IMG/VR virus record: IMGVR_UViG_2773857766_000003
Span: 1 to 64,000 of that record
From: a virus
Lineage: Duplodnaviria > Caudoviricetes
Length of the DNA: 64,000 nt
Reading direction: 5' to 3' (one strand)
Part shown: piece by piece, positions 2,898 to 41,314 of the stretch
Layout of the letters: every line of letters begins with the position of its first letter
How positions within the stretch are numbered: position 1 is the first letter of the stretch
Program-made: the position numbers and the translations under genes
The notes under the pieces: model-generated
What the model was told of the DNA's origin: nothing
The model's input: the letters and a program-made list of their open reading frames with translations, nothing else
Database searches by the model: none

Positions 2898-3046
2898 CCG
2901 CCGTCGTTTTGCCTTCGGGCTGGTATGGATACCTGGGCGCTCGCCGAGTCCTTCGGCTGCACCTGTCGGGCGAATTGCACGGTCGGCCCCAGCCCTACGG
3001 GGTAATGGTGTATGTCGCTATGAACTTGATCGGGTACGGCGTATGA
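2894..3046 (+). CDS. Small hypothetical protein (50 aa, MTAVVLPSGWYGYLG...)
   Basis: Translated by hand; ATGA overlaps with both neighbours. Confidence 0.55.
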   Translation: MTAVVLPSGWYGYLGARRVLRLHLSGELHGRPQPYGVMVYVAMNLIGYGV

Positions 3047-3258
3047 GTCCCGAAGAAATCCGCGATCTGCCCTACCGCGCACGTAGGGCCATTTCTGCCC
3101 CGGTCCCGAAATCCGTATTGGACGGATCGAAGGCCGCGATAGCTGAATACAAGGCATGCGCTGCAGCCTGCAGCACGTATCTCCGCACGGGCCACCAGCC
3201 GGAGCGCGCTCGCGCCCGCGTCAAGGTCCTGGAGCGTATGCAGGGGGTGGAGTCGTGA
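3043..3258 (+). CDS. Hypothetical protein (71 aa, MSPEEIRDLPY...)
   Basis: ATGA/GTGA coupling to neighbours. Confidence 0.6.
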   Translation: MSPEEIRDLPYRARRAISAPVPKSVLDGSKAAIAEYKACAAACSTYLRTGHQPERARARVKVLERMQGVES

Positions 3259-3419
3259 TTTCTTTCACCTCTGTCTGCATTGGTGCTGTGTTCATGTCGT
3301 CTGCGCTCGTCGGCCGGATGTTCGCTGACCATGGCCTTGCCCCCCAAGGCCCTTGGGGGCTGCTCTATGCCATCGGCTTCATGGTGCTGCTGCTGGCGCT
3401 GATCGGCCGTTCGCTGTGA
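3255..3419 (+). CDS. Small two-TM membrane protein
   Basis: GTG start after GGAG; two hydrophobic stretches. Confidence 0.55.
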   Translation: MISFTSVCIGAVFMSSALVGRMFADHGLAPQGPWGLLYAIGFMVLLLALIGRSL

Positions 3420-3719
3420 AGCACATCCTGGCCCACTTGGCGCGCGCCCTTGCCGCCCCCCTTCCTGGAGACAAACCGGGGACCCGCATGGAGGCCTTGT
3501 GCCGACTCTGCGGGGCTGGGGGTATGGGGGTGCATACCCCCCATGTCGCCCTACGTGCAACCCGTGCCCCGCGCCATGTTGGCGGTCCTGAGTGCCCCCC
3601 CGCGCCCTTCCGTCCGCAAAACGCTGCCGCATGGCTTGCTATCGCCTCGTTCTGTGATGCCGAGCCCTGGCGCGACCTGTACGTGCACGGCCGCACGGTA
3701 GGTATGCGCGCAGCGCGCT

Positions 3720-3801
3720 GCGCGGAGGGGGCCCCGCTTGCGGGGGAGGCTTCCGCGCACGCGGCAGGGGCGCAAGCCCTCCCCGTTGGTAATCACGGGG
3801 A
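3720..3801 (+). promoter_or_regulatory. Putative rolling-circle origin hairpins of inovirus 1
   Basis: TCCCCGT-TGGTAATC-ACGGGGA stem-loop at 3780-3801 plus a GC-rich branched hairpin at 3720-3758, just upstream of rep; counterpart at 19344-19420. Confidence 0.6.
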
Positions 3802-3852
3802 TAACGATAAAGGGCACCCGTCTTCATTTGTACTAGAACAAAAAGGTTTTGT

Positions 3853-5115
3853 ATGACGCACCCAGTTGGTACAAATGTGAACAAGCATGCAAAAGGCCAT
3901 GCTGGTGCATGTAGCTTGGTCCTCGATGGAAATCAGGTCAAAGCTCGGTTGATTGCAGAGCGCATTGAAAGCGGCGTCCCTGTCCATGTGGATTGGGTCC
4001 GTTTCACGGTCAACCTTCGCAATGCACCTATGCCATCGGTAGACGTGCTTTTTCCCGAAGAGGACGTGGAGCCGTTGAGCGTTTGGGACCGTGATGAGCG
4101 CACTGTCCGTATCCAGCGCTTGCGCAAGGTTTTGCGCTTCATTCCCGATGTGGATTTTTCGCCCAGCGTGCAGGCGTTTGAGCTTGCTGAGCGCGTTGCT
4201 GAGTGCCTTGGCGGTGATTTCGTCGTCCATCCGGAGGTTCGCAAAGGCCATGATTTCTATCGCTGCCGGTGGTCGATTGAGCGCAATGGCGCCGAAGTCG
4301 GATGGGTTGGATTCCTCGCGTCCGGCGATGGTCCTCGCCAACAGGCACAGGCGAAAACGATTCACTGCAACGTCTACGGGTCAGCCTGTACGTTCGCCAG
4401 AAGCGGATGGCGTGATCACCTCGCTAACGTGGTTGATGAGGCAAAGGGCTGGCTGACGCGCATTGATTTGGCCCTCGATTTTTTCGACGGATTGAACGGT
4501 GGCATGGAGCGCGTCAAGGCGGACTATGAAGCGGGCTTGTGCGACGTCGGGGGGCGTCGTCTCAAGTGCAACATGGTCGGCGACTGGTGCGGCGGCAAGG
4601 CCCGTTCGTTCTATGTCGGCACCAAAGAGGTCGGCAAGCAGACCAACGTGTACGAAAAGGGTCATCAGCTCTTTGGCGATGCAGATACATCTGCCTGGAT
4701 ACGCGCCGAACTACGGTGGGGCAATAAGGCCCGGTTCCTGCCTACCGACATGCTGCGCCGTCCGGCCGATTTCTTCCATGGTGCCAGCGACTGGCATGCG
4801 TCCCTTCTCAGGGAGGCGGAAGCAATTTCGTTCCCGGAGACAGTTTCCTGTGAAGCGAAGCGGCAGATTGAAACCGTGGAAGGTGAAGCAGTGCGCAATG
4901 TGCGCTGGCTCCGTGAAGTGGCTGCGCCGAGTCTCGCCCTTGCATTCCAGCACCTCGATTTCGAGCATTTCCTCGAACTCGTGTGCAACAAAAAGGCCCC
5001 TGGCCGTCTGCAGAAATTCAGCGAAGCGGAGATTGCGCGCGCCTATGACCGCGCGTTCCTGCGGTCCTCAACCAAAAACCCAAAGAGCGCGGACGTTGGC
5101 CACGTCTTGGCATAG
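3853..5115 (+). CDS. Rep_trans-family rolling-circle replication initiator
   Basis: VDWVRFT, TRIDLALD, SFYVG, VYEKG, WIRAELR motifs. Confidence 0.92.
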   Translation: MTHPVGTNVNKHAKGHAGACSLVLDGNQVKARLIAERIESGVPVHVDWVRFTVNLRNAPMPSVDVLFPEEDVEPLSVWDRDERTVRIQRLRKVLRFIPDVDFSPSVQAFELAERVAECLGGDFVVHPEVRKGHDFYRCRWSIERNGAEVGWVGFLASGDGPRQQAQAKTIHCNVYGSACTFARSGWRDHLANVVDEAKGWLTRIDLALDFFDGLNGGMERVKADYEAGLCDVGGRRLKCNMVGDWCGGKARSFYVGTKEVGKQTNVYEKGHQLFGDADTSAWIRAELRWGNKARFLPTDMLRRPADFFHGASDWHASLLREAEAISFPETVSCEAKRQIETVEGEAVRNVRWLREVAAPSLALAFQHLDFEHFLELVCNKKAPGRLQKFSEAEIARAYDRAFLRSSTKNPKSADVGHVLA

Positions 5116-5145
5116 CTCTCAACAAAAGGCCATGAAGGAAAAGTT

Positions 5146-5463
5146 ATGAAGTTCGATACCGAAGTCGTGGTCCATGGCGTCAAGGAAAGCGAAGGGACCA
5201 TCGAAGGCCGCGCCTACAGCAGCACCACTTTCCACTGCGAGGTGGACCTGAGCGAAAACAGTGCTGGCCGCAGCATCGGCCGTGCGACACGCCCTTTCAA
5301 GCTGGGCGATGCTGCCGAGTTCAACAAATGGGCGCACCTGGGCGCATCCCTGCCCATCAAGGCTGTGGCCACATTCGAAATGGCTGCTGGCGCGCAGGAC
5401 GCGACCAAGCTGAAACTGGTGGCCATCCGGCCCGTCGAGCGGGCACCCGCAAAGGCGGCCTGA
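5146..5463 (+). CDS. Single-stranded DNA-binding protein (pV-like)
   Basis: ~100 aa, beta-rich, directly after rep; AAGGA RBS. Confidence 0.75.
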   Translation: MKFDTEVVVHGVKESEGTIEGRAYSSTTFHCEVDLSENSAGRSIGRATRPFKLGDAAEFNKWAHLGASLPIKAVATFEMAAGAQDATKLKLVAIRPVERAPAKAA

Positions 5464-25400: not shown

Positions 25401-28400
25401 TTTGGCGAAGCGCAACGCTTCCCGCATCTCCGCCTCGGAGATTCCCGCGATGGCACCCTCGCCAGCGTACATTGCCCCCCCTTCCCTCACCATGTCCAGG
25501 ATCGCGCGCGGCTGCTTCTCCGTGACGGTGGCCACCCAGTGGAAGCGCCCCTTCACCGAGCCCCGGTTGGGCTTGATGGCGATCACGAACGGCTGACCCT
25601 GCGGGTTGCTCATCGACGTGACGAAATTCAGGCTCGCGTCGCCGCGGCTGCCCTTGTTCCAAACCATGACCATGCGCGGGTTCGCCAGCTCGTCCAGGAT
25701 CTGCTTCATCTGCGACGGCTTCACGCCATGGTTGTAGAGCGCGTCCATGGCGTGCACACCGGCGTGCGCGGGCAGATCCGGCAGCCCCAACATCTTCATC
25801 ACCGCCGTGGACGATGGCAGCACCTCGTAGGTCTTCGTTTCGTCCAGCCCGCCACGGACGAACTGATCGACCAGCCCGGCCCACTTCGCCCGGGCCTGGG
25901 CCAGCGCGTCAGCTGGCAGGCTGAAGGCCAGGGCGGGCGCGCCGCCAGCGGCTGCCGGCGCTGCGTCTGCCTGGCGCCCGCGCTCGACCCAGCCCCGGGC
26001 CGGCAGGATGAAGTCCCGGACGATCTCGGCGTCCGTCATCCGCAAGTCGGCGAAGCCCGGGATGTGCGCCCGCGCCCAGCTGCGCACGGCGGCCACCGCG
26101 CGCTGCACGAAGCCCAGCTCCGGACGGGCCTGCGCCATCTCGGCCAGCACCTCCTCGGCCGCCTGCATCCGCTGGGCCCGGTCGCCGTAGTCCAGACCGT
26201 ACTCCGCCGCCTTGCGTCGCACCTCGGCGGGCCGCGCCTGGACGAGCTGCTGCAGCACCGCATCGAGCCCCGAGCCGAACACCCCGGCGAGCCCGTGGTG
26301 GCCTAGCGCCTCATGCATGAGCACGCGGGCCACGTCTTGGTCGCGCGGCAACTGCTCGGCCAGCAGGTACACCTTCCCGCCGAAGTAGAACCCCTCCGGC
26401 GAGCCCCCGGCGCCGCGGCTGCGCTGGCTCAGGTCGGCATCGCGCACCTGCTGCGGCACCTTCGGGTCGGCCATGTCGAACGCCACGACCACCTCGGGGC
26501 CGTTCGCCCACGCGGAGCGGATCGCAGCCGCGGCGGATTCCGTGCGGGCCACGGCCTGGGCCTTCGCCTCGTCGGGCACGGCCGGGGCCTCCTGCATCGT
26601 GCGCAGGAACGCGTCCACGTCGAAGTCATCGGCCGGCCCGGGCGCGCCGCGATCCTGCTGCACGTCCGGCAGGCGCATTTCGTGGCCGCCCACCACCACG
26701 ATGGCCTCGGCCGGCGACACGTCCATGTCGGCCTGCACGGGCCGTGCACGGCGTTCTGCCTCCGTGAGCCCCTGCCGTGCCTGCGTGGTGCGCGCTTCTA
26801 CCTCACCGGCGAGGGAGCGGTAGATGTCGTAGGGCGATCCGAACTCGAACTTCCGTTCCAGGGCCTCGGCTACCCGGGCCCGGCCCTCCTGCTCTCGCAG
26901 GGGCTCCAGCGCGGCGCGCGCCTTGTCGGCGTGCCGGCGCAGCGCGCCGATCATCCCTTTCATCGTGCGCTCGTCGGCCTTGAACGCTGCCAGGTTCTCA
27001 GGCGCGATGGTGCTTCGCAGCCACTTCTGCGCATCGAAGGCCATGTCCCGGATGTAGGCGTTGCGCTTTGCGCCGCTCTTGGGCATCCCGTAGAACCGCC
27101 GCTGCAGCTCGACCGCCACCGGGTCAAGCCAGTGCGTCGTGTTGTAGATCCACTGCATCTCGTTGCGGATGAGCCGGAACACGCCGCTGGGCTTGTCGCG
27201 CTCCGAGTAGGACAGCAGCCGCTCCATGGATTCGTACATGAGGGCATCGCGCACCACGGCGGCCGCCTTCTCAGCGTTCTCCATCAAGTCCGGGTGCTTC
27301 GCCTTCCACGCCTCCACCGCCCGCGCTTCGCCCTCGGCCATCTCGCGCAGGGTCTTGCGCACGCTGCTCGTGAAGTCGGCGTCCATGTTGCCGCCCAGCG
27401 CGAAGCCTTCACGGTACTGGATCGCGTGCTGGAGTTCATGCAGCAGCGTGGACAGCACCTCTCCTGGAGCGCGATCCGCGTTCAGCGTGACGGCCCGGTG
27501 GGTCTCGTCGTAGGAGCCGAACTCGCGGGCGTCTCGCCCCCTGCGGAAGTAAACCTTCAGCCCCCGCAGAAACGGATAGGCGGCGAACAGCGCCGGATGC
27601 CGCAGCACGTCGGTCAGCGCCTCCACCTGTCCATCCTTCACCTTCGCGATGTCGAACTCCACGCCGAAGCGGGCCCGCGCCACGCGGTCCACAAGGTTGG
27701 CCAGCGCCCCCTCTCGGGTGGTGCTGTAGGCCCGCAGCACGCCGTCGCCTTCGTCCAGCTGGGCGGTGTGCAGTTCGTCGTCCTGGGTGACGGTCGCCGC
27801 CTCGCGCACCTGGCGCTCCACCTCCACGAGATCCTCCGGCCGCGTCTCGGCCCGGCGGAATTCGGCGGTGTCATCGCTGATCTCGAAGCGCCAGCGGCCA
27901 TCCACGCCGCGGTGCCAGCCGGTTTCCTGCTGGATGACGGCGCTGGACATGCCGCTGCGCGCCATGGCCTCGGCGCGCTCCAGCTCGCCCAGGTCGGCGC
28001 TGCGTGCGTTCCTGCCGGCGAAGCTGAAGCGGATGTCCGGGTTCGACGGGTCGAACGTGCCGATGTTTCCAGTGGCCGACTTGACCTGAGCCTGTGCCAG
28101 CACCGCGAGCGATGCCCCACCGTTCGACTCGGCAAACCAGATCCCGTCGTACTGAACACCAGCACGGTCCAGCCACTTTCGCAGTTCCGGCTCCTGCTGC
28201 CAGACCGGCAGCGCTCCGCGCTCCGTCCCCGAGGTGGCCCACGATGCCGCGCCCGTCTCCTCGGCGTACTTGCGCCACAGCGCGAGGCCTTCCCCACGGG
28301 AAGCGTCGAAGGGCCGTTCAGCCTTGACGTACAGCGGATAGGTGGCACCGCCGGCCGCGTAGTGCTCGGCAAACGCAGGGTCTGGCGACAGGAAGATAAG

Positions 28401-33443: not shown

Positions 33444-35003
33444 TTATTTTGAAATGCCCTGCTTCTGCAGTTCCTTGATTACCTCGTCCACCGTCATGCC
33501 ATATTTTTTGGCCGTGGCGTCGAGGTTTTCCTGAGACATGGCATTTCGCACCTGGGCCTTGACAGCGTCGCCGGCTTGGCGCGAGGCGCGGTCTTTCTGG
33601 ACCTTCGCGCGATTGAAACGCACCAGGCCCTCGTCTGTGTCCCGGATGGAGGGGTTGTCCGCCATGAATTCCTGGAACTCCTGTTCCGCGGCCGGGTTCC
33701 GCTTGACCTTCTCCTTCCCAGAAAGCGGGTCGGTGGACGTTTCTCCGAACGCCTTCTGCACTTTGGTGGGGTCGTAGTCGTACTTCAGCTTGGAAGTGTC
33801 CGAGCCAGGGGTTTGCAGGATGCCCGCACGCACCGCGCGCAGTTGGGTCGGCGTCATCTTCGGATCGGTCTCCCGTGCCAGCGCCTCGCGCACGTCGCGA
33901 AGTTCGCGCTTCTCAGCCAGGCGCTCACCCCGGTCAGCCATGGCCAAGCCGTGCGCCGCCGCCGCCCGGCCGTCGGCGTTGTCGGCTCGGCGATCAGCAT
34001 TGTCCGCGCGGGCCTCAGCGCGCAGCCGCAGTTGGTTCAGCAGCTCGTGCTGGCTGTATTGGTAGAGCGCCATCGGATCGTCCAGCGCCTTCAGCATGGC
34101 CAGCGCCTCGCCGCGGTCTTTGAGCGTGATAGGCGGCATCGGCTTCCCGTCCAGCCCCGTGCGCTGCACCAACAGCTGCCCGTCCTTCCCCGCCTCGATG
34201 CCCGTCACCTTATCGCCGCTGGGCACGAACCGGTTGTAGACGTCGGCCAGCTGGGTGTAGTCGCCCGCAGCCAGCGCCGCGGCGGCCTTCCCTGCAGCCT
34301 CCTTGCGGGCCGCCGCCTGCAGCTGGATCTGGATGTGACTCTGCGCCATGTGGTCCTTGGCCGCTTGATCCGCTTCCTTGGCATAGCCCGCCTGAGCAAG
34401 CGCCAGTGCGCGTTCCCGCGTGTTCGCCAGGTAGTCGTCCGCCGTGGCTTGCCGCGGTTGACCATCCGGGCCCACGAGAGCCTGCTTCAGCTTCGCCCCC
34501 ATCTCCGCGTCGATCCGCTCCACGCCGTCCTCGCGCGCCCACTGTTTCTCCTCTCGCCCCTGCTTGCGCGCGGCGAACAGCCCCTGCTGCGCCTGCAGGC
34601 TCATTTGCAGGCCGCGGGCAGGATCGGTCCGACCGATGGCGTCCGCCATTGCCCGCATACGCAGGTTGTCCTGCTGATCGCGGCCCATGCTGCCGGCAGT
34701 ACGCTCGCCCAAGAAGTCGGTGACGCCCTGCATGGCCACCGTCCGGGCCTCGCCGGCCGAGTTCTTCGCCACATAGGCCTTCGCGCCGTCATCGAATGTG
34801 ATGTTGTCGAAACCCTGCTTCGCCAGACTTTCCAGCTGCTGGCCCTGGTCTGCCGTGAAGCCTGTAGATTCCACGGGCCGCGCGCTCGCCACTTCATCAA
34901 GCGCACGCTGCTGCTGTGCCTGCTGGAACTGCCCGTGGAAGTTCTGAAAAATCTGCTGGCCCTGCAGGATACCTGCCGCCAGTCCGCCGCGTGGTGCTGC
35001 CAT
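33444..35003 (-). CDS. Probable ejection (internal core) protein
   Basis: Ala/Gln-rich and helical; lies between the small and giant ejection genes. Confidence 0.7.
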   Translation of the reverse strand: MAAPRGGLAAGILQGQQIFQNFHGQFQQAQQQRALDEVASARPVESTGFTADQGQQLESLAKQGFDNITFDDGAKAYVAKNSAGEARTVAMQGVTDFLGERTAGSMGRDQQDNLRMRAMADAIGRTDPARGLQMSLQAQQGLFAARKQGREEKQWAREDGVERIDAEMGAKLKQALVGPDGQPRQATADDYLANTRERALALAQAGYAKEADQAAKDHMAQSHIQIQLQAAARKEAAGKAAAALAAGDYTQLADVYNRFVPSGDKVTGIEAGKDGQLLVQRTGLDGKPMPPITLKDRGEALAMLKALDDPMALYQYSQHELLNQLRLRAEARADNADRRADNADGRAAAAHGLAMADRGERLAEKRELRDVREALARETDPKMTPTQLRAVRAGILQTPGSDTSKLKYDYDPTKVQKAFGETSTDPLSGKEKVKRNPAAEQEFQEFMADNPSIRDTDEGLVRFNRAKVQKDRASRQAGDAVKAQVRNAMSQENLDATAKKYGMTVDEVIKELQKQGISK

Positions 35004-36355
35004 TACTCCGCCTCCGAAAGTTCGTCGTCCAACTCCTGCATCCGCCGCGCCAGTTCAGCGCGGATCGTTTGCAGGCCAATCCTGTATTCCGGCAGCACCT
35101 CGGGGTGCCGCTGCTTGAGATATGCGGCCTTGCCGTCGTCCCACCACGCCGTGCAGTGCAGGCACTCTGGGGCGCTGATCGCCCGGAAGGTGTCGTACAC
35201 CGGACTGCGCGGCGCGCCCACCTGATCGAGGTAGGCGAACACGTCGCCGTGGCTCCAGTCCAGCAGCGGCAGCAGCACGTCGTAGTGCTCGGTGGCGCCC
35301 ACGGCGGGCACGCGGCCGGTGTCGGCCCGCTTCGTGCCGCGGATCACCAGGTCGATGCCGTCGGCCAGCATGCGCTCGTGCATCGGAAGCATGAGGTTGT
35401 GCCAGCAGCAGTCCATCCGCCCGACCAGAGCGACATCGCTCATGCTGTACTGGCGGCCGATCCAGCCGGATTGCGCGGTTGTCACGTCGCTGGGCATGCC
35501 GTGGGTGGCCTTCCACGCCAGGACATCCGCATGGATGACCCGGAAGTCCGGCACCCACGCTCGAGCCTCCTCTACCACTTCAACCGTCTCGGGGATCGTG
35601 TCGCCCGTGTGCGTCCAGTACACCGGCAGCCCCAGCTCCACGAAGGGGCGCAGCAGGAGCAGGCAGGCCTGCGAGTCCTTCCCGCCCGAGAACTGCAGGG
35701 CAGCACGGCGGCCGCGGAAAGCGTGGCCACGATCGCCGAGCCGGAACACCGCCACGCTGTGGTCGAAGCGGCCGAACACCGGAAGCGCGCCGGCCACCGT
35801 GGGGCCGGGCGCTCGGTGCTCATCCTGAAGCGCCACCACCAGATCGAACCCCACCAGCTGCGCCCACAAGCTGACCTCGGGGAAGGAGGCCAGGCGGTAG
35901 CCCAGCACCTCGCGGGCCAGGGTCTGCTCCTCGTGGCGCGCGGCGTACAGCTCATGGAGCACCAACTGCCCGCCGGGGGCCAGCAGCCGGGCCGCCTCTT
36001 CCAGCACGGCCACCGGATTGCAGTAGCCCAAAGCGTAGGCCACCACCACCGCGTCCGCTCGCCCGGCCGGCAGCCCCGTCGCCACCATGTCGGTAGCAAC
36101 GACCTCCGCCCAGTCGGGCGCCTGCGCCAGCTGCCAGTGATCGACGTTCACCAGCGTCCAGTGCAGGTCCGGCCGCACGGGCCGGCACAGCTCGGCCAGC
36201 CGGCCCGTGCCGCAGCCCAGGTCAACCACAAGAGCGCCGCGCGGGAGGGCCAGCAGGCGCAGTAACTCGGCTGCATGCTCCGGCTCGCTCTCGGCGAGGC
36301 GCCAGTAGGCCAGCAGCTCGACGCCCTCGGCGTTCAGGATTTGTTCGGGCCGCAT
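35003..36355 (-). CDS. Class I SAM methyltransferase-PAPS reductase family fusion
   Basis: VVDLGCGTG in the N half; FSGGKDS, DCC, IRGTKRAD, PLLDW, CLHC in the C half. Confidence 0.85.
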   Translation of the reverse strand: MRPEQILNAEGVELLAYWRLAESEPEHAAELLRLLALPRGALVVDLGCGTGRLAELCRPVRPDLHWTLVNVDHWQLAQAPDWAEVVATDMVATGLPAGRADAVVVAYALGYCNPVAVLEEAARLLAPGGQLVLHELYAARHEEQTLAREVLGYRLASFPEVSLWAQLVGFDLVVALQDEHRAPGPTVAGALPVFGRFDHSVAVFRLGDRGHAFRGRRAALQFSGGKDSQACLLLLRPFVELGLPVYWTHTGDTIPETVEVVEEARAWVPDFRVIHADVLAWKATHGMPSDVTTAQSGWIGRQYSMSDVALVGRMDCCWHNLMLPMHERMLADGIDLVIRGTKRADTGRVPAVGATEHYDVLLPLLDWSHGDVFAYLDQVGAPRSPVYDTFRAISAPECLHCTAWWDDGKAAYLKQRHPEVLPEYRIGLQTIRAELARRMQELDDELSEAE

Positions 36356-36357
36356 CG

Positions 36358-37224
36358 TCAGATCGCGATCGCTGCGGAAACACCGATGCCCAGCATCGCG
36401 CCCGTGTTGGCGCCGGCCGTGGCCTGGCTCTGCTGGTGCGCCTGGCTCTGCGCGGACCATGCGTTGGTCGCCGAGTTGGTCGCGGCGTTCGCCGCCCCGG
36501 CGGCCTGACCGTAGCCGGCATTGAGCCCCGCAAGCCCCGTATTCGCGATGGTCTGCCCGGCTGCGCCGTAGCCCGCCGTGGCAGCGGTGGTCTGCATACC
36601 CATGGTGGGGTAGCCGGCCAGGGCGTTGCTCGCGCGATCGGTCAACGCGCGGCCCTCCGCGCGGGCGGCGGTGCGCGCCCCGTTCTTGGCCTGGGCGAGC
36701 GCGAGCCCCGTCTGCGCCACCAGCGCATTGCCCGCGGCACCGTATTTCCCATCCGCAGGGTTGATGCCCATGCGCGACATCTCTGCGGCCTGGGTGCGCT
36801 GCGCGCCGGTGTAGGCCTGCGACACGTCCGCCGCGGCTTGGCCGGCCAGCTCCTCGCGCTTCGCCTCCGTGTTGAAGGTCGCCGCGTCTTGGATCATCCG
36901 GTCCTGCTGGCCGGTCAGCTGGTCGCGACGGCCCAGCGCGTAATCGCGGTCTGCCTGAGACTGCTCCCAGGCCTTGCGCGAGGTGTCCAGCGCGAACTGG
37001 GTCTGCTCCTTCTGGAGCGGAGCCATGTCGTTCGTGTTCTGGATGATCTGCCGGACCATATCGTCCTGCACGCCCAGGTTTCGCACCTGAGCCTCCACCA
37101 GCCGCGGATCGGGCGCGGGCGTGCCGCCACCCTTGCCGCCCTCCAGGGACATGCCTCCGCCGGCCCGGGGCCGGAAGGCCCGGTCCGGAAGGAGGTCGAA
37201 ATCAGTTCGATGCCAGCGAGACAT
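36358..37224 (-). CDS. Small ejection protein (P22 gp7-like)
   Basis: N-terminal leader then EGGKGGG; Ala/Gly/Gln-rich; hydrophobic C-terminus. Confidence 0.7.
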   Translation of the reverse strand: MSRWHRTDFDLLPDRAFRPRAGGGMSLEGGKGGGTPAPDPRLVEAQVRNLGVQDDMVRQIIQNTNDMAPLQKEQTQFALDTSRKAWEQSQADRDYALGRRDQLTGQQDRMIQDAATFNTEAKREELAGQAAADVSQAYTGAQRTQAAEMSRMGINPADGKYGAAGNALVAQTGLALAQAKNGARTAARAEGRALTDRASNALAGYPTMGMQTTAATAGYGAAGQTIANTGLAGLNAGYGQAAGAANAATNSATNAWSAQSQAHQQSQATAGANTGAMLGIGVSAAIAI

Positions 37225-37633
37225 ACCTGCAATCCTTCTTCCACATCACGTACAGAATTACGTCGCCGCCGTCGGGCGCCGCGCCACGCAGCCGGGCCTC
37301 GGGCCGCCATCCCAGGTGTTCGTTCAGGCGCCGGGCCGCCAGGTTGTTCGCGTTCACGTAGCCGCTGATGCGCTCACACCCACACACGAGGAAGGGGTAG
37401 GCGAAGCCGGCCCGCAGGAACTCGCGTGTCATCCAGCGCGCGCCGGGCGCGCCGGCCAGGTGGACCCATAGGTTCCGGCCGTTGAACCCCTCGTACACGG
37501 CGCCGGCCACCAGCACGCCGTCGCGACGCAGCCCGATCGCCCGCTGGCCATCGCATGTGGCGAAGCCCGGGATGCGCTCGCGCATGAAGGGCAGCACCGC
37601 CTCGATGTCGTATTCCAGCGCGTGAACAGTCAT
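37202..37633 (-). CDS. GNAT-family acyltransferase (virion assembly)
   Basis: NNLAARRLNEHLGWRPEARLR GNAT motif; precedes the ejection genes. Confidence 0.8.
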   Translation of the reverse strand: MTVHALEYDIEAVLPFMRERIPGFATCDGQRAIGLRRDGVLVAGAVYEGFNGRNLWVHLAGAPGARWMTREFLRAGFAYPFLVCGCERISGYVNANNLAARRLNEHLGWRPEARLRGAAPDGGDVILYVMWKKDCRYVSLASN

Positions 37634-37673
37634 GCCCGCAGGGTGGCAGGCTTGGTACGGAGCCCAGAAACAA

Positions 37674-37697
37674 CAAAGCCCGCGGAAGCGGGCTTTG
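37674..37697 (-). terminator. Rho-independent terminator after parA-like gene
   Basis: CAAAGCCCGC-GGAA-GCGGGCTTTG. Confidence 0.75.
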
Positions 37698-37713
37698 CGA
37701 AGCGGAAAGCTAC

Positions 37714-38754
37714 TTATAGGACGGCAGCCAAATACTCCAGTTCCTTGCGGTACTTGGTTTGTGATTGATTTACCTGCAGACGACTACCGTTAACAGTGTG
37801 GAACTGTCCTACCTTCAATTTTGGAATGGGAATACCTTCTGCCCCACTGATGCGACCTGCAGACATGAAGTCGTCGGTGATTACGAAAGCATCGGCCGGA
37901 TCTTCCACGTCGAACAGATGTGGATACTTGGCCGCGGTGCCATACGCACGTTCCACATACATTTGCGATGCGCGGTCTTTGACCCCTTTTTTAGGACTCC
38001 GGGCGCCCACCATTGTCATAACAATTGCCGCGACCTTGGGAGTTTCCATGCCACCGGCCCTCGCCCCCCAGACGTTAAAGTCGCTGGCAGGGTTTGAGAG
38101 CATGTCAAGCGTGATATCTAAAGACTCGATTGAGTGCTCGTCCACACGGACAGGGATGATGAGCGCGTCAGCGGCGCACCATGCCAGATGAGTACCGCCG
38201 CCATAGAAAGGGCTGCAATCCATCAGAATCTTGCTGCAACTCTTCGATTCTGCCTCGTCGTTCAACACACCTTTCAGGCTCAGTAGGATGTTTCTCACGG
38301 CTTTTTCATTGCTCGACGCCATGGCCTGCTGGAGCTGCTGATATAGCGCAGAGGGGAAGGAAAAAAGCTGCCCATCGCCCGGCACAAAATACCCGGATTT
38401 AGCCCCTTTAAAATGATCGTTGAAGTTGCTAATACGGTAAGAAATATCCTCCGGAACTTCTCCAAATGCAGGACCCAGCACCTTTGGGCGCAGTGCATCG
38501 CCAATTGTGATTTCCGCTTTCTGACCGCGCATCAGAGATTCGGTCAAGTTCTTTTGTGGACACAGGTCAGCAACCAACGTGGCGTAGTGACGGGTGAAAA
38601 GCCATGCCAAGTTGAAACTGAGAGTGGATTTACCAATGCCTCCGCGGAGATTTGAAACAGCGTACGAACGCCGCCCAAACTTCACAACTGCTTCGTAGCC
38701 CTCTTCTATCGACTGGTCATGGTTGGCAATGATTCGGCTCAGTCCAGATCCCAT
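37714..38754 (-). CDS. Orphan ParA/MinD-family ATPase (low-GC moron)
   Basis: NLRGGIGKST deviant Walker A, ADLCPQKNLT, MDCSP, ADALIIPV. Confidence 0.88.
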   Translation of the reverse strand: MGSGLSRIIANHDQSIEEGYEAVVKFGRRSYAVSNLRGGIGKSTLSFNLAWLFTRHYATLVADLCPQKNLTESLMRGQKAEITIGDALRPKVLGPAFGEVPEDISYRISNFNDHFKGAKSGYFVPGDGQLFSFPSALYQQLQQAMASSNEKAVRNILLSLKGVLNDEAESKSCSKILMDCSPFYGGGTHLAWCAADALIIPVRVDEHSIESLDITLDMLSNPASDFNVWGARAGGMETPKVAAIVMTMVGARSPKKGVKDRASQMYVERAYGTAAKYPHLFDVEDPADAFVITDDFMSAGRISGAEGIPIPKLKVGQFHTVNGSRLQVNQSQTKYRKELEYLAAVL

Positions 38755-38766
38755 AAAAAATTCCCC

Positions 38767-38885
38767 GCAGGTCGTTGAAGATGCTGCAGGTTACAAAAAA
38801 TCTCGCAGGACGTCAACTTTTCCGCAGGCCGTCACGAAAGCTGCAGGTCGATCTAAAAAGTGCAGGCCTTTGACAGGTCAGCAGA
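38767..38885. repeat. Seven GCAGG cores at exact 19-bp period upstream of parA-like gene
   Basis: GCAGG at 38767, 38786, 38805, 38824, 38843, 38862 and GCAGA at 38881; intervening 14-mers differ. Confidence 0.9.
38788..38816 (-). promoter_or_regulatory. Sigma70-like promoter of parA-like gene, embedded in the array
   Basis: TTGACG-17 bp-TAACCT on the minus strand. Confidence 0.7.
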
Positions 38886-38945
38886 TGAAGGCGGCTTGCG
38901 GTTGGGCCAAAGTACAGTCCGAAAGCGCTCCAAGCCATTCCTTCC

Positions 38946-39386
38946 TCATGACTCGAACGGTGCTACCGGCCACTCGATCGCGCGCGGGTCGCCCTGCCCC
39001 GTCACATCGCGCAGCGCCTGCCGGTAGTCCAGCCAGGCCTGTCGCATGTCGGCCGGCGTGGGCGCGTCAGGCAGCACCCGCCAATCGCACGCGCGCAGGA
39101 GCTCGTCCCGCCGCGCACGCACGTAGCCCCACAGCTCGGCCGCGTCTGGCACCCACTCCAGGCGCCCGAAGTCGAACGCGTGACCCTGCCCGGGCCACGG
39201 AGGGAATGGCACAGGCGCCCCGGCCGTGTGGCTCCAGTAGTGCGTCATGGGAAGCACGTCGGCGCCCACCGCCACCCACCCGCTCGGCGCTCCCATGCCC
39301 ACCGGCACGTCGGCAATGCGAAAGATGGTCGCAAGGTCCGGGCAGCCCGGTACATCCCGCAGCTCGGCGCAGCGGCGCTGGTTCAT
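38946..39386 (-). CDS. Tail fibre assembly chaperone
   Basis: RARRDELLRACDW..WLDYRQALRDV..WPVAP motif. Confidence 0.85.
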   Translation of the reverse strand: MNQRRCAELRDVPGCPDLATIFRIADVPVGMGAPSGWVAVGADVLPMTHYWSHTAGAPVPFPPWPGQGHAFDFGRLEWVPDAAELWGYVRARRDELLRACDWRVLPDAPTPADMRQAWLDYRQALRDVTGQGDPRAIEWPVAPFES

Positions 39387-41314
39387 CGCTTTCCTCCTGT
39401 GGCGGTAATGGTGGTGCGTGCCACGGTCAATTGTTGATTTGCACCGGGCCCGTAGTTCGGGCTCACCACCTCGATGTCGTAGAAGTGGGTGCCATCCCAC
39501 CATGGCGCGTCGAAGCCCACCACGAAAATCTGCGATGTCCACCCCCCGCGCATGGACGTGGCTGCGTGCGTGATTCGGGCGCCGTTACGGCGCAGGTACA
39601 CCACCACGCTGGCATCGCCTCCCAGGGGATTCACCTCGGCGTAGGCCGACAACGTGACGCCCGACGAGTTCGCCGGCATGGCGAGGTAGATCCCCGCCCC
39701 ACCAGAGCTGCCACCGCCCGGCACCACGAAACTGCCTGACTCTCCGAACGACATGGCCGTCACGGCCCCGCCCTGCACCTGCAGCGTGCCGATCGCGGCG
39801 TTGCCGATGTAGGCTGTGCCGATCGCGGCGGTGTCCATGAAGACGCCGATGTTGTTGCTGGTGATGCGCTGCAGGCGGTTGATGAAGTCGGAGGTGCCCA
39901 TCACCGAGCCATCGGGGAAGGTCACCGTTTCCCCGATCCGCGCCGCGTCGCGCCGCGCCAACGTGCCGAGCCCGCCGACCTGGGCAGCCTGCAGGTTGCG
40001 CAACCACTGGGCGTCCATGCCGTTGGCCGACAGGATGATGTTGCCGGCGCTGTCGCGCACCGTGAGCCCCCGCGTGTCCACCTTGCGCGCCGCCACCGTA
40101 CCGTCCACCAGTAGGTCGCCGCTCAACACCGCACCGGGAATGGCCCAGTAATACCCCATCCAGTGCCTGGTCTGGGTGAACGCGCCGCCGTCGGTGATGG
40201 TGACGGCATCGCCCACCTGCAGGTGGTTGTTGTTGGGTGCGCTGCCGCCGTTGCCCAAGGCCTGCCAGACAGCCTGCCGGGCCGTGGCGTCGCTCCAGTA
40301 GCTGCCGCTCGCGGACAGCAACACCGAGCCCCGCATGCCGTCGGCGAGCGTACGGCCCTGCCCATCCACGCGCAGGTTGCCCTTCACATAGACGTTGTTC
40401 TGCAGGTAGATCCCATTGCCGTCCACGCCGAACACCACGTCCTGCGGCCGCGGCGTGCGCAGCAGCCCCCCGCTGTAGTTCGGCGCCACCACAGCGAACT
40501 TGTCGGCCATGATGATGAAGGCGCTGGTGGTCTGGCCGTTGCGCTCCTCGGCGGCGATCCCGAAGCCGGCCAGCGCGCCGCCGGCCTGCACCTTGAGCGT
40601 GTACTGCGCGCGCAGCCCGTCCGAGTAGCTGGCCAGCACGGTCATCTCCTGCTCCAGGCTCGCGCGCCCGGGCGTGCCGTCGCGGTAGTAGCGCCCGAGC
40701 GAGGCCTGCAGCTGCAGCACGTTGGTGGCCATGGCGCGCTGCCCGTCGCTCCAGGCCGCCTGCGTGGCGCGGATGCCGGCGCTGGCCTGCTGCAGGCTGG
40801 CAGTCACCTCCCGCACCTGGCGCGCGAAACTGCGTTCGTTCGTCTGCACGATGGTCTGCAGGTCGCGCACCTCCGCGCCGCGCTTGGCGGCCTCGTCGGC
40901 AATCGAGCGCACCAGCTCGTCCCGGATCTCCTTCGCCAGGTGGTCGAACCGCGTGGGATCGTCCAGCGTCTTCGCGAGCGAGCGGAACAGGGCCGAGTCG
41001 ATGATGGCCTGGGCGAAGCGGTCGATCTGCACCGTGGCCGACAGCCCCCCGCCCAGGTCGATCAACGTTTCCCCCGGCCCGGGCTTGCGGTCCTGCTCGA
41101 GGATCTGCACTAACCCCTGCACGCCTCCCATGGCCTCGCGCAGCTCGCGCACCGTCACGCCGCGCTCGAATTCGTTGCCGCGCGAGCCGGCGCGCACCTC
41201 CAGGTGCTCCGTCACCGCCTTGGCCCAGTCGGTGAGGGCCTTGTCCTGGGCATTGAGGCGCGGCAGGGCCGGCAGCCGGGCCACACCCGTGTCGATCTTG
41301 CGGCTGTTTGTCAT
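39383..41314 (-). CDS. Tail tip/fibre protein (J/DUF1983-like C-terminal domains)
   Basis: Coiled coil, then AQYTLKVQAGG..AGFGI..FIIMADKFAV. Confidence 0.75.
   Translation of the reverse strand: MTNSRKIDTGVARLPALPRLNAQDKALTDWAKAVTEHLEVRAGSRGNEFERGVTVRELREAMGGVQGLVQILEQDRKPGPGETLIDLGGGLSATVQIDRFAQAIIDSALFRSLAKTLDDPTRFDHLAKEIRDELVRSIADEAAKRGAEVRDLQTIVQTNERSFARQVREVTASLQQASAGIRATQAAWSDGQRAMATNVLQLQASLGRYYRDGTPGRASLEQEMTVLASYSDGLRAQYTLKVQAGGALAGFGIAAEERNGQTTSAFIIMADKFAVVAPNYSGGLLRTPRPQDVVFGVDGNGIYLQNNVYVKGNLRVDGQGRTLADGMRGSVLLSASGSYWSDATARQAVWQALGNGGSAPNNNHLQVGDAVTITDGGAFTQTRHWMGYYWAIPGAVLSGDLLVDGTVAARKVDTRGLTVRDSAGNIILSANGMDAQWLRNLQAAQVGGLGTLARRDAARIGETVTFPDGSVMGTSDFINRLQRITSNNIGVFMDTAAIGTAYIGNAAIGTLQVQGGAVTAMSFGESGSFVVPGGGSSGGAGIYLAMPANSSGVTLSAYAEVNPLGGDASVVVYLRRNGARITHAATSMRGGWTSQIFVVGFDAPWWDGTHFYDIEVVSPNYGPGANQQLTVARTTITATGGKR

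Follow-up and report, generated by a model that had tools for sequence, protein, structure and literature searches.

We analyzed a 64,000-nucleotide stretch of a virus record of the class Caudoviricetes (IMG/VR record IMGVR_UViG_2773857766_000003, positions 1 to 64,000; hereafter the window), in which a gene for a ParA-like ATPase is preceded by a row of short, regularly spaced boxes. The gene lies on the minus strand (37714..38754), encodes a protein of 346 amino acids (aa) with the ParA/MinD fold, and was identified by its open reading frame, Pfam (AAA_31 and CbiA) and PHROGs matches, and an AlphaFold2 (AF2) model. The boxes read CCTGC on the gene strand and fill approximately 120 nt ahead of the start codon. 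The reading that we favor, with modest rather than strong confidence, is that of a self-repressed, lysogen-expressed DNA-binding ATPase, with the array most likely serving as its own operator; autoregulation by ordered binding is the best-supported part of it.

The array (38767..38885, minus strand) was delimited from the sequence and from the presence of the same lattice upstream of homologs. On the plus strand, six exact GCAGG copies start at 38767, 38786, 38805, 38824, 38843, and 38862, with a period of exactly 19 bp and 14-nt spacers, all six of them different, and a degenerate seventh box is found at 38881-38885 (GCAGA on the plus strand, TCTGC on the gene strand). This is the layout described in the original prediction, made from the letters of the DNA, and it exceeds shuffled sequence: six in-phase copies of the 5-mer were observed, while shuffling the 200-nt upstream region 5,000 times never gave more than three, a value reached in 23 of the 5,000. 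No second array of this kind was found elsewhere in the 78-kb virus record. Three CCTGC copies spaced by 39 and 9 at 26732-26780 of the window, where the coding sequence is GC-rich, were taken as chance. Tandem Repeats Finder returned no rows for the array, to which it is blind, the repeated part being just 5 bases in 19.

Putative control signals flank the gene on both sides. A σ70-like promoter can be read within the array (38788..38816, minus strand), with a -35 hexamer TTGACG at 38816-38811, a 17-nt spacer, and a -10 hexamer TAACCT at 38793-38788; one box sits in the spacer and the next is overlapped by the -10. A putative Shine-Dalgarno-like GGGGAA, read from the sequence, is found 7 to 12 nt upstream of the ATG (38761..38766, minus strand). 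Sixteen nucleotides past the stop codon, the terminator scan placed an intrinsic-terminator-like hairpin of 11 pairs followed by a T-rich tail (37673..37698, minus strand); the scan gave one site against a shuffle mean of 1.7, so the argument for it is its position after the stop and not the count. The gene has a GC content of 0.49 to 0.59 compared with 0.64 to 0.75 in its flanks, in agreement with its first description as a low-GC gene with its own terminator, and the GC profile and the neighbors outline a low-GC cassette at approximately 37660..38930. With its deviant composition, promoter-like site, terminator-like hairpin, and slot among tail and accessory genes, the window holds a one-gene prophage moron with its own predicted promoter and terminator.

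Both fold and profile place the protein in the ParA/MinD (deviant Walker A) superfamily. It matches AAA_31 with 51.3 bits (cutoff of 27) and CbiA with 31.8 bits (cutoff of 25.4) in Pfam, falls in PHROG_164 ("ParA-like partition protein"), and its AF2 model, built with 23 homologs (predicted local distance difference test score [pLDDT] of 85.5, predicted template modeling score [pTM] of 0.88), aligned over nearly its full length with Soj, McdA, ParA, and MinD as the top Foldseek folds. The ESM Atlas returned ParA-type clusters only. The whole chain forms a single ParA fold whose extras are a short N-terminal helix (residues 5 to 16) and internal insertions. The first core strand begins at residue 30, with 28 residues ahead of the ATPase core, which bears out the original estimate that there is no room for the helix-turn-helix (HTH) of a type Ia ParA; the N-terminal HTH of about 100 aa found in those proteins is absent, and only the short helix precedes the core. 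The family is large (1,215 matches) and uniform, since among the 120 matches listed nearly all are 344 to 351 aa long, at 59 to 100% identity. A second gene hidden in the coding sequence, such as an embedded frame of the KorA-in-incC kind, is excluded by the flat fourfold-site entropy (1.82 to 1.93 bits along the gene), synonymous sites being uniformly saturated. We found no study of this ATPase family in the literature searched; in the portion available of the paper on Ralstonia phage RsoM1USA, its ORF57 is annotated merely as a ParA family protein.

Two hallmark residues of the superfamily are altered. The Walker A motif reads RGGIGKST, with R37 at the position of the signature lysine and K42 as the P-loop lysine. 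HMMER alignment to solved Soj proteins matches R37 to the Soj signature Lys and C65 (in D63-L-C65-P-Q) to Soj D44, the catalytic, water-activating Asp. At this motif wild-type Soj (1wcv) reads VDLDPQ, the D44A mutant crystallized as an ATP dimer (2bek) VDLAPQ, and the window protein ADLCPQ; equivalent mutants, H. pylori Soj D41A and McdA D38A, appear in the Foldseek titles. The protein therefore has neither the signature Lys of KGGxxK[ST] nor the catalytic Asp of DxDPQ, while the P-loop K42 and the Walker B D179 are retained. R37, C65, K42, and D179 are all invariant among the 23 aligned homologs (60 to 88% identity), so that the Arg first spotted in place of the signature Lys is a family trait. 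The Cys at the catalytic position is retained in relatives down to 22% identity, and far relatives at 22 to 26% identity have KGG rather than RGG. In the accessible text of PMC9178275, the signature lysine is what defines the deviant Walker A, Soj D44A was crystallized as a dimer, and the departures at the signature position given in Table 1 include BcsQ (RGGVGTT) and McdA (SGGQGKT).

Soj and other chromosomal and type Ib ParA proteins (T. thermophilus 1wcv/2bek and H. pylori 6iub) have the same fold (Foldseek E values of 6e-11 to 3e-10, TM scores of 0.71 to 0.76 on the target), share the P-loop Lys, the first switch Asp, and the Walker B Asp, and likewise have no N-terminal HTH. The window protein differs from Soj in its Arg for the signature Lys, its Cys for the catalytic Asp, and some 90 extra residues in the N-terminal helix and the insertions, and its gene has no ParB partner and no plasmid or origin-proximal context and owns a specific repeat array. 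BcsQ and McdA also depart from KGGxxK at the signature position; unlike them, the window family has no cellulose or carboxysome context and keeps the P-loop Lys. BcsQ models of Pfam and NCBIfam score far under their cutoffs for the window protein, and some family homologs carry the Joint Genome Institute (JGI) name BcsQ.

The original prediction regarded gene and array as one module, which leads one to look for a phased array with variable spacers upstream of homologs, and such an array is indeed kept with the gene. We assembled a genomic set of 54 loci in which the gene is near complete and added the window (55 in all; individual loci are cited by L numbers), and counted as an array at least three lattice boxes within 300 nt upstream. 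An array was present, always on the coding strand, in 51/55 genomic loci, and the exceptions were two truncated genes (L016 and L035), an insertion between array and gene (L011), and a decayed array (L048). Among viral loci at ≥53% identity it was present in 48/49, the single miss being RsoM1USA, with boxes at 0, 9, 28, and 37 plus one extra. Array-bearing records span Proteobacteria, Actinobacteria, Verrucomicrobia, Acidobacteria, Bacteroidota, Planctomycetes, Chlorobi, and Firmicutes. When five whole carrier genomes were scanned, all three-box matches but one were located at the gene.

Box spacings across these loci were 9 (68 cases), 19 (136 cases), 28 (17 cases), and 38 (4 cases), so that 225/230 fall on one lattice and the remaining 5/230 are off by one. 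The lattice can be described as a repeating 19-bp unit that has sub-sites at positions 0 and 9, with about 9.5 bp per step. The spacers are nearly information-free except for a T-rich center, the T-rich tracts being phased with the boxes; they do not align across loci, and nucleotide similarity ends at the coding sequence. Within the array, the best σ70-like promoter is found toward the 3' end and has 2 to 6 additional boxes upstream. In 29/52 loci the end of its -35 hexamer is overlapped by a box whose first base falls at +3 to +8 of the hexamer, and further boxes fall at +13/14 or +26 (in the spacer or the -10) and at +32/33 (near the start site). The TTGACG-17-TAACCT/TAGCCT layout recurs in L001, L002, L004, and L005.

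Two further observations concern the upstream regions. Tandem 9-bp units were found upstream of the gene in L027 and also in L029, L090, and L091, namely, CCTGCATAA six times, and GCAGGCAAT six times on the opposite strand beside a forward array, which suggests that arrays grow through slippage of the 9-bp sub-unit. In one metagenome-assembled genome (L039/L060), the box-bearing upstream region is duplicated in near-identical form before a second ParA-like gene, 27% identical.

A sister clade of the ATPase (42 to 46% identity), which retains the R of RGG and the Cys, is preceded by other boxes. In all five of its loci (L117-L120 and L122; viral contigs, within 100 nt upstream), we found not CCTGC but TAGACA-N3-TGTCKA units with a 28-bp period, that is, inverted half-sites, in contrast to the direct repeats of the CCTGC boxes. 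Because these different boxes keep the same 28-bp period, the box sequence shifts with the protein clade while the lattice stays constant, and this points to a clade-specific reader of the boxes.

The genomic surroundings of the family are those of integrated elements. Carriers are integrated prophages, insertion sequence (IS)-like units, or chromosomal sites, and none of 72,556 plasmid records had a homolog at ≥50% identity. Plasmid matches were limited to five Aeromonas plasmids at about 36% identity; the one examined (L065, a 5.9-kb plasmid of Aeromonas veronii) carries, besides an RGG-type relative at 36%, a separate parA of the ordinary type accompanied by a small partner gene, and the region upstream of the relative has no CCTGC boxes. 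In viral loci the nearest upstream gene was a cI-like repressor in 14/45, a Q antiterminator in 4/45, and a spanin gene and a tail gene once each. Similar slots occur in genomic loci, beside an S24 repressor (L001 and L002), Q (L018), or N (L015), and far relatives in Klebsiella phage ST11-VIM1phi8.2 and Pseudomonas phage phi297 also directly follow a repressor gene. Slots adjacent to repressors or antiterminators are classical places for lysogen-expressed accessory genes. Some genomic loci are flanked by housekeeping genes.

No conserved partner gene of the ParB or ParG kind emerged from neighbor clustering in 62 loci. The only recurrent proteins were an IS1-like transposase (25/62) and a small basic protein (19/62), neither of which is in the window. 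A shared 2.27-kb unit consists of the cassette, the IS1-like DDE transposase, and the small basic protein, with equivalents in about 20 loci; in L017 its genes lie at 3025-3924 and 5038-5280, both on the minus strand. The small basic protein, about 75 aa long, ends in GGKARA..LTPEeR.eIAkKAA..RW and has no Pfam or NCBIfam match, and the cassette lies between it and the transposase gene in either orientation. No convincing terminal inverted repeats were found around six transposase-linked units, and the ATPase gene is single copy in 5/5 genomes with such units, which therefore give no sign of active transposition.

In the window itself the cassette is flanked by a tail-fiber assembly chaperone gene (38946-39542, minus strand) and, just downstream, by an acyltransferase gene (37202-37633, minus strand), with no parB-like neighbor beside the gene, as had been noted at the outset. 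The product of 37202-37633 is a 143-aa acyl-CoA N-acyltransferase-like protein (phrog_4470) whose gene has the usual high GC, which assigns it to the phage backbone. In the prophage structural region, 35003-36460 (minus strand) encodes a 485-aa fusion of an S-adenosylmethionine (SAM) methyltransferase with a 3'-phosphoadenosine-5'-phosphosulfate (PAPS)-reductase domain (phrog_424), a possible accessory gene for the modification of DNA or nucleotides.

Taking the ATPase as the binder of its own array is the simplest reading because no second protein is conserved, no embedded frame exists, and the box sequence tracks the protein clade, and autoregulation by ordered binding fits because most loci have the promoter within the array. 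In such a scheme the ATPase would bind ATP, form by analogy the usual sandwich dimer, and hydrolyze ATP slowly or perhaps not at all, and would act as a stable DNA-binding protein instead of a dynamic partition motor. Cooperative, in-register binding to the CCTGC boxes would then cover the -35, the spacer, the -10, and the transcription start and hold expression of the ATPase at a low set level. We infer here that the ATPase binds the boxes, that binding means repression, and that hydrolysis is impaired, from the sequences, the alignments, and the model. There is precedent for the regulatory half of the scheme, as type Ia ParA proteins (P1 ParA and F SopA) repress their own promoter with the ATPase itself, according to the part available of PMC9178275. 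They do so with an N-terminal HTH of about 100 aa, compared with just 28 residues before the core in the window protein. Operators of type Ia ParA are not known to be phased direct-repeat lattices. A phased array of about 19 bp that contains the promoter of the gene that follows is known from iteron-controlled rep genes (P1 repA and F repE), whose promoter is embedded in 19-bp iterons; here the product is a ParA-fold ATPase and not a winged-helix initiator, 5 bp per unit are conserved, and the carriers are integrated.

Several results weigh against this reading. No sequence-specific DNA-binding domain is visible in the model or the fold alignment, and direct repeats suit a two-fold symmetric dimer poorly. 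Operators of short ParA systems are normally bound by ParB, as far as the accessible text of PMC2666795 goes; pTAR ParA, considered as a precedent for a short ParA binding repeats, was dropped, since in the available parts of PMC2666795 and PMC3235114 it is ParB that carries out autoregulation there. Of the promoter originally proposed to be threaded through the array, the hexamers and their spacing stand, but the -10 is weak, agreeing at just 3/6 positions, and a stricter scan for promoters came up empty in this region. PADLOC (PADLOC-DB 2.0) returned no family for the ATPase at E values up to 1, and strong defense-family neighbors lie within 2.6 kb in just 7 of about 52 loci. Evidence for expression is thin: contigs with the gene were found in RNA libraries of 11 runs from 3 studies, and three of four RNA contig sets are flat across the region. 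In run X12, contig depth was 605 to 1,201 on the gene and 15.7 and 91.4 beside it, contig depth being a poor measure of expression; the ends of the X12 contigs at 37703 and 38761 are not readable as transcript ends.

The remaining points of this kind come from arrays that lack the gene. When viral contigs were searched with a pattern of four boxes spaced 19 bp apart, at least 80 loci with DNA were obtained (L137-L216). Among the 80 matches listed, 16 had the gene downstream on the same strand, 14 were plain tandem repeats, and 50, in 19 sequence families, were variable-spacer arrays with no gene within 700 nt. Two complete array-bearing proviruses have no ATPase homolog at all. Of 301 genomes of the family Enterobacteriaceae sampled, 12 fit a three-box pattern, about 7 of them being apparent true arrays, and in five array-bearing genomes tested the gene was found in one and was wholly absent from four. 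Because array-bearing genomes lack the gene, the array can persist or function without the ATPase in the cell, and the existence of these solo arrays lowers our confidence that the array is an operator alone.

Solo arrays occupy varied positions. In temperate phages of P. aeruginosa, among six compared at the junction of the i-spanin and o-spanin genes (L257-L262), an array of about 75 bp in reverse orientation is present in JBD44, phPA-G, Marin, and P52 and missing in Fyn8 and PACT201. EaA-type mosaic genes of Klebsiella phages also contain arrays. At L147 and L213 the array runs directly into a terminator hairpin, like the cassette minus its gene, and viral locus L156 has nothing but the small basic protein and an array, the ATPase gene being absent. 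An apparent signature of selection on solo arrays (0/25 and 0/20 variable columns in boxes versus 13/55 and 10/42 in spacers) was rejected, as these loci had been picked by a perfect-box pattern. Solo arrays may have been left behind when the gene was lost, may be used in trans, or may be self-standing functional elements.

If they are self-standing, the CCTGC lattice might be an autonomous, portable cis-element (a bent-DNA promoter, an insulator module, or a recombination-prone boundary) with the ATPase gene as just its commonest passenger. The 19 families of variable-spacer solo arrays among the matches listed, the complete proviruses and whole genomes with arrays and no gene, the on/off state of the array at the spanin junction, and the box-phased T-rich tracts all speak for this idea. 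It is harder to square with the five invariant bases per unit, which exceed what curvature needs, with the different boxes of the sister clade on the same lattice, which point to a clade-specific reader, and with a gene that is almost never found without the array; besides, solo arrays may be gene-loss relics, as L147 and L213 look to be. On balance we consider a portable element rather unlikely.

Another protein could instead bind the boxes, be it a host factor, the small basic protein, or the IS1-like transposase, the ATPase being merely regulated. The sources seen in part, PMC2666795 and PMC3235114, describe short ParA proteins as normally leaving the operator to a small partner. The small basic protein is conserved and adjoins the array in 19 loci, and in one viral locus it accompanies an array with no ATPase gene. 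Nonetheless, the window and most prophage loci retain the array but have neither this protein nor the transposase, and box identity switches with the ATPase clade. We know of no CCTGC-binding factor common to eight phyla, and a separate binder seems to us a poor prospect.

Still less can be said for a minimal ParB-free partition or positioning system in which the array is a centromere bound and moved by the ATPase, as the original prediction had considered. The ParA fold invites the idea, and so does the layout, which resembles centromere-operators spanning a par promoter. Those of TP228 ParG and pSM19035 omega have phased direct repeats across the par promoter; at R1 parC/ParR, ten direct repeats flank the promoter (work cited within the available part of PMC3235114). 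The likeness extends to short direct repeats with roughly helical phasing, the enclosed promoter, and, probably, autoregulation. There, however, a small ribbon-helix-helix adaptor binds the repeats, while the window cassette has no adaptor gene, and the family is not on plasmids: the plasmid records hold no close homolog, all carriers are integrated elements, and the examined one of the five Aeromonas plasmids with relatives at about 36% has an ordinary parA pair besides and no CCTGC array. The catalytic Asp required by the ParA cycle is also replaced, and we regard a centromere function as very improbable. The last proposal, a small structured or guide RNA made from the array in the manner of clustered regularly interspaced short palindromic repeats (CRISPR), recalls the alternation of short repeats with unique 14-nt spacers and has a next to negligible chance, given that a 5-nt repeat is too short for a CRISPR-type repeat stem, that the spacers are not conserved, that the promoter, in the 3' portion of the array, is directed at the gene, that Rfam at E values up to 1 gave only two sub-threshold chance matches, none on the array (the best, 24.9 bits against a gathering score of 35, on the terminator hairpin), and, as weak evidence, that depth in X12 is lowest (15.7) for the contig spanning most of the array.

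For the self-repressed ATPase, the question that follows is that of its effector role. Our leading guess, a tentative one that we would not back at even odds, is a lysogen-expressed exclusion or defense function against other mobile DNA. From the position of the gene, a role as a defense moron is possible, and the defense-family neighbors in 7 of about 52 loci are suggestive at most. A more elaborate and doubtful version joins the gene to the solo arrays in a two-part mobilome recognition system, made up of an ATP-locked, sequence-reading ParA filament protein and a free-moving cis-site that also stands alone in rival phages. The array beside the gene would then be only the autoregulatory copy, and the ATPase would either work in trans against invaders that carry an array (exclusion) or be titrated by the solo arrays of phages (counterdefense). 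Solo sites of the JBD44 type at the spanin junction in Pseudomonas and in EaA-type genes in Klebsiella would be examples of such sites in rival phages.

ParA/MinD ATPases are the textbook positioning motors, which need a partner protein and ATP turnover. The family described here, found in at least eight phyla and spread via prophages and IS-like units, has lost the partner, altered both catalytic hallmark residues, and gained a private DNA lattice with a step of 9.5 bp. Its lysogen-expressed slots make the ATPase a candidate for an uncatalogued phage-exclusion function, and the arrays without a gene offer a direct handle on action in trans. If the ATPase itself reads the lattice, it would represent a new mode of sequence recognition for the ParA fold and a compact, host-independent, autoregulated expression module.

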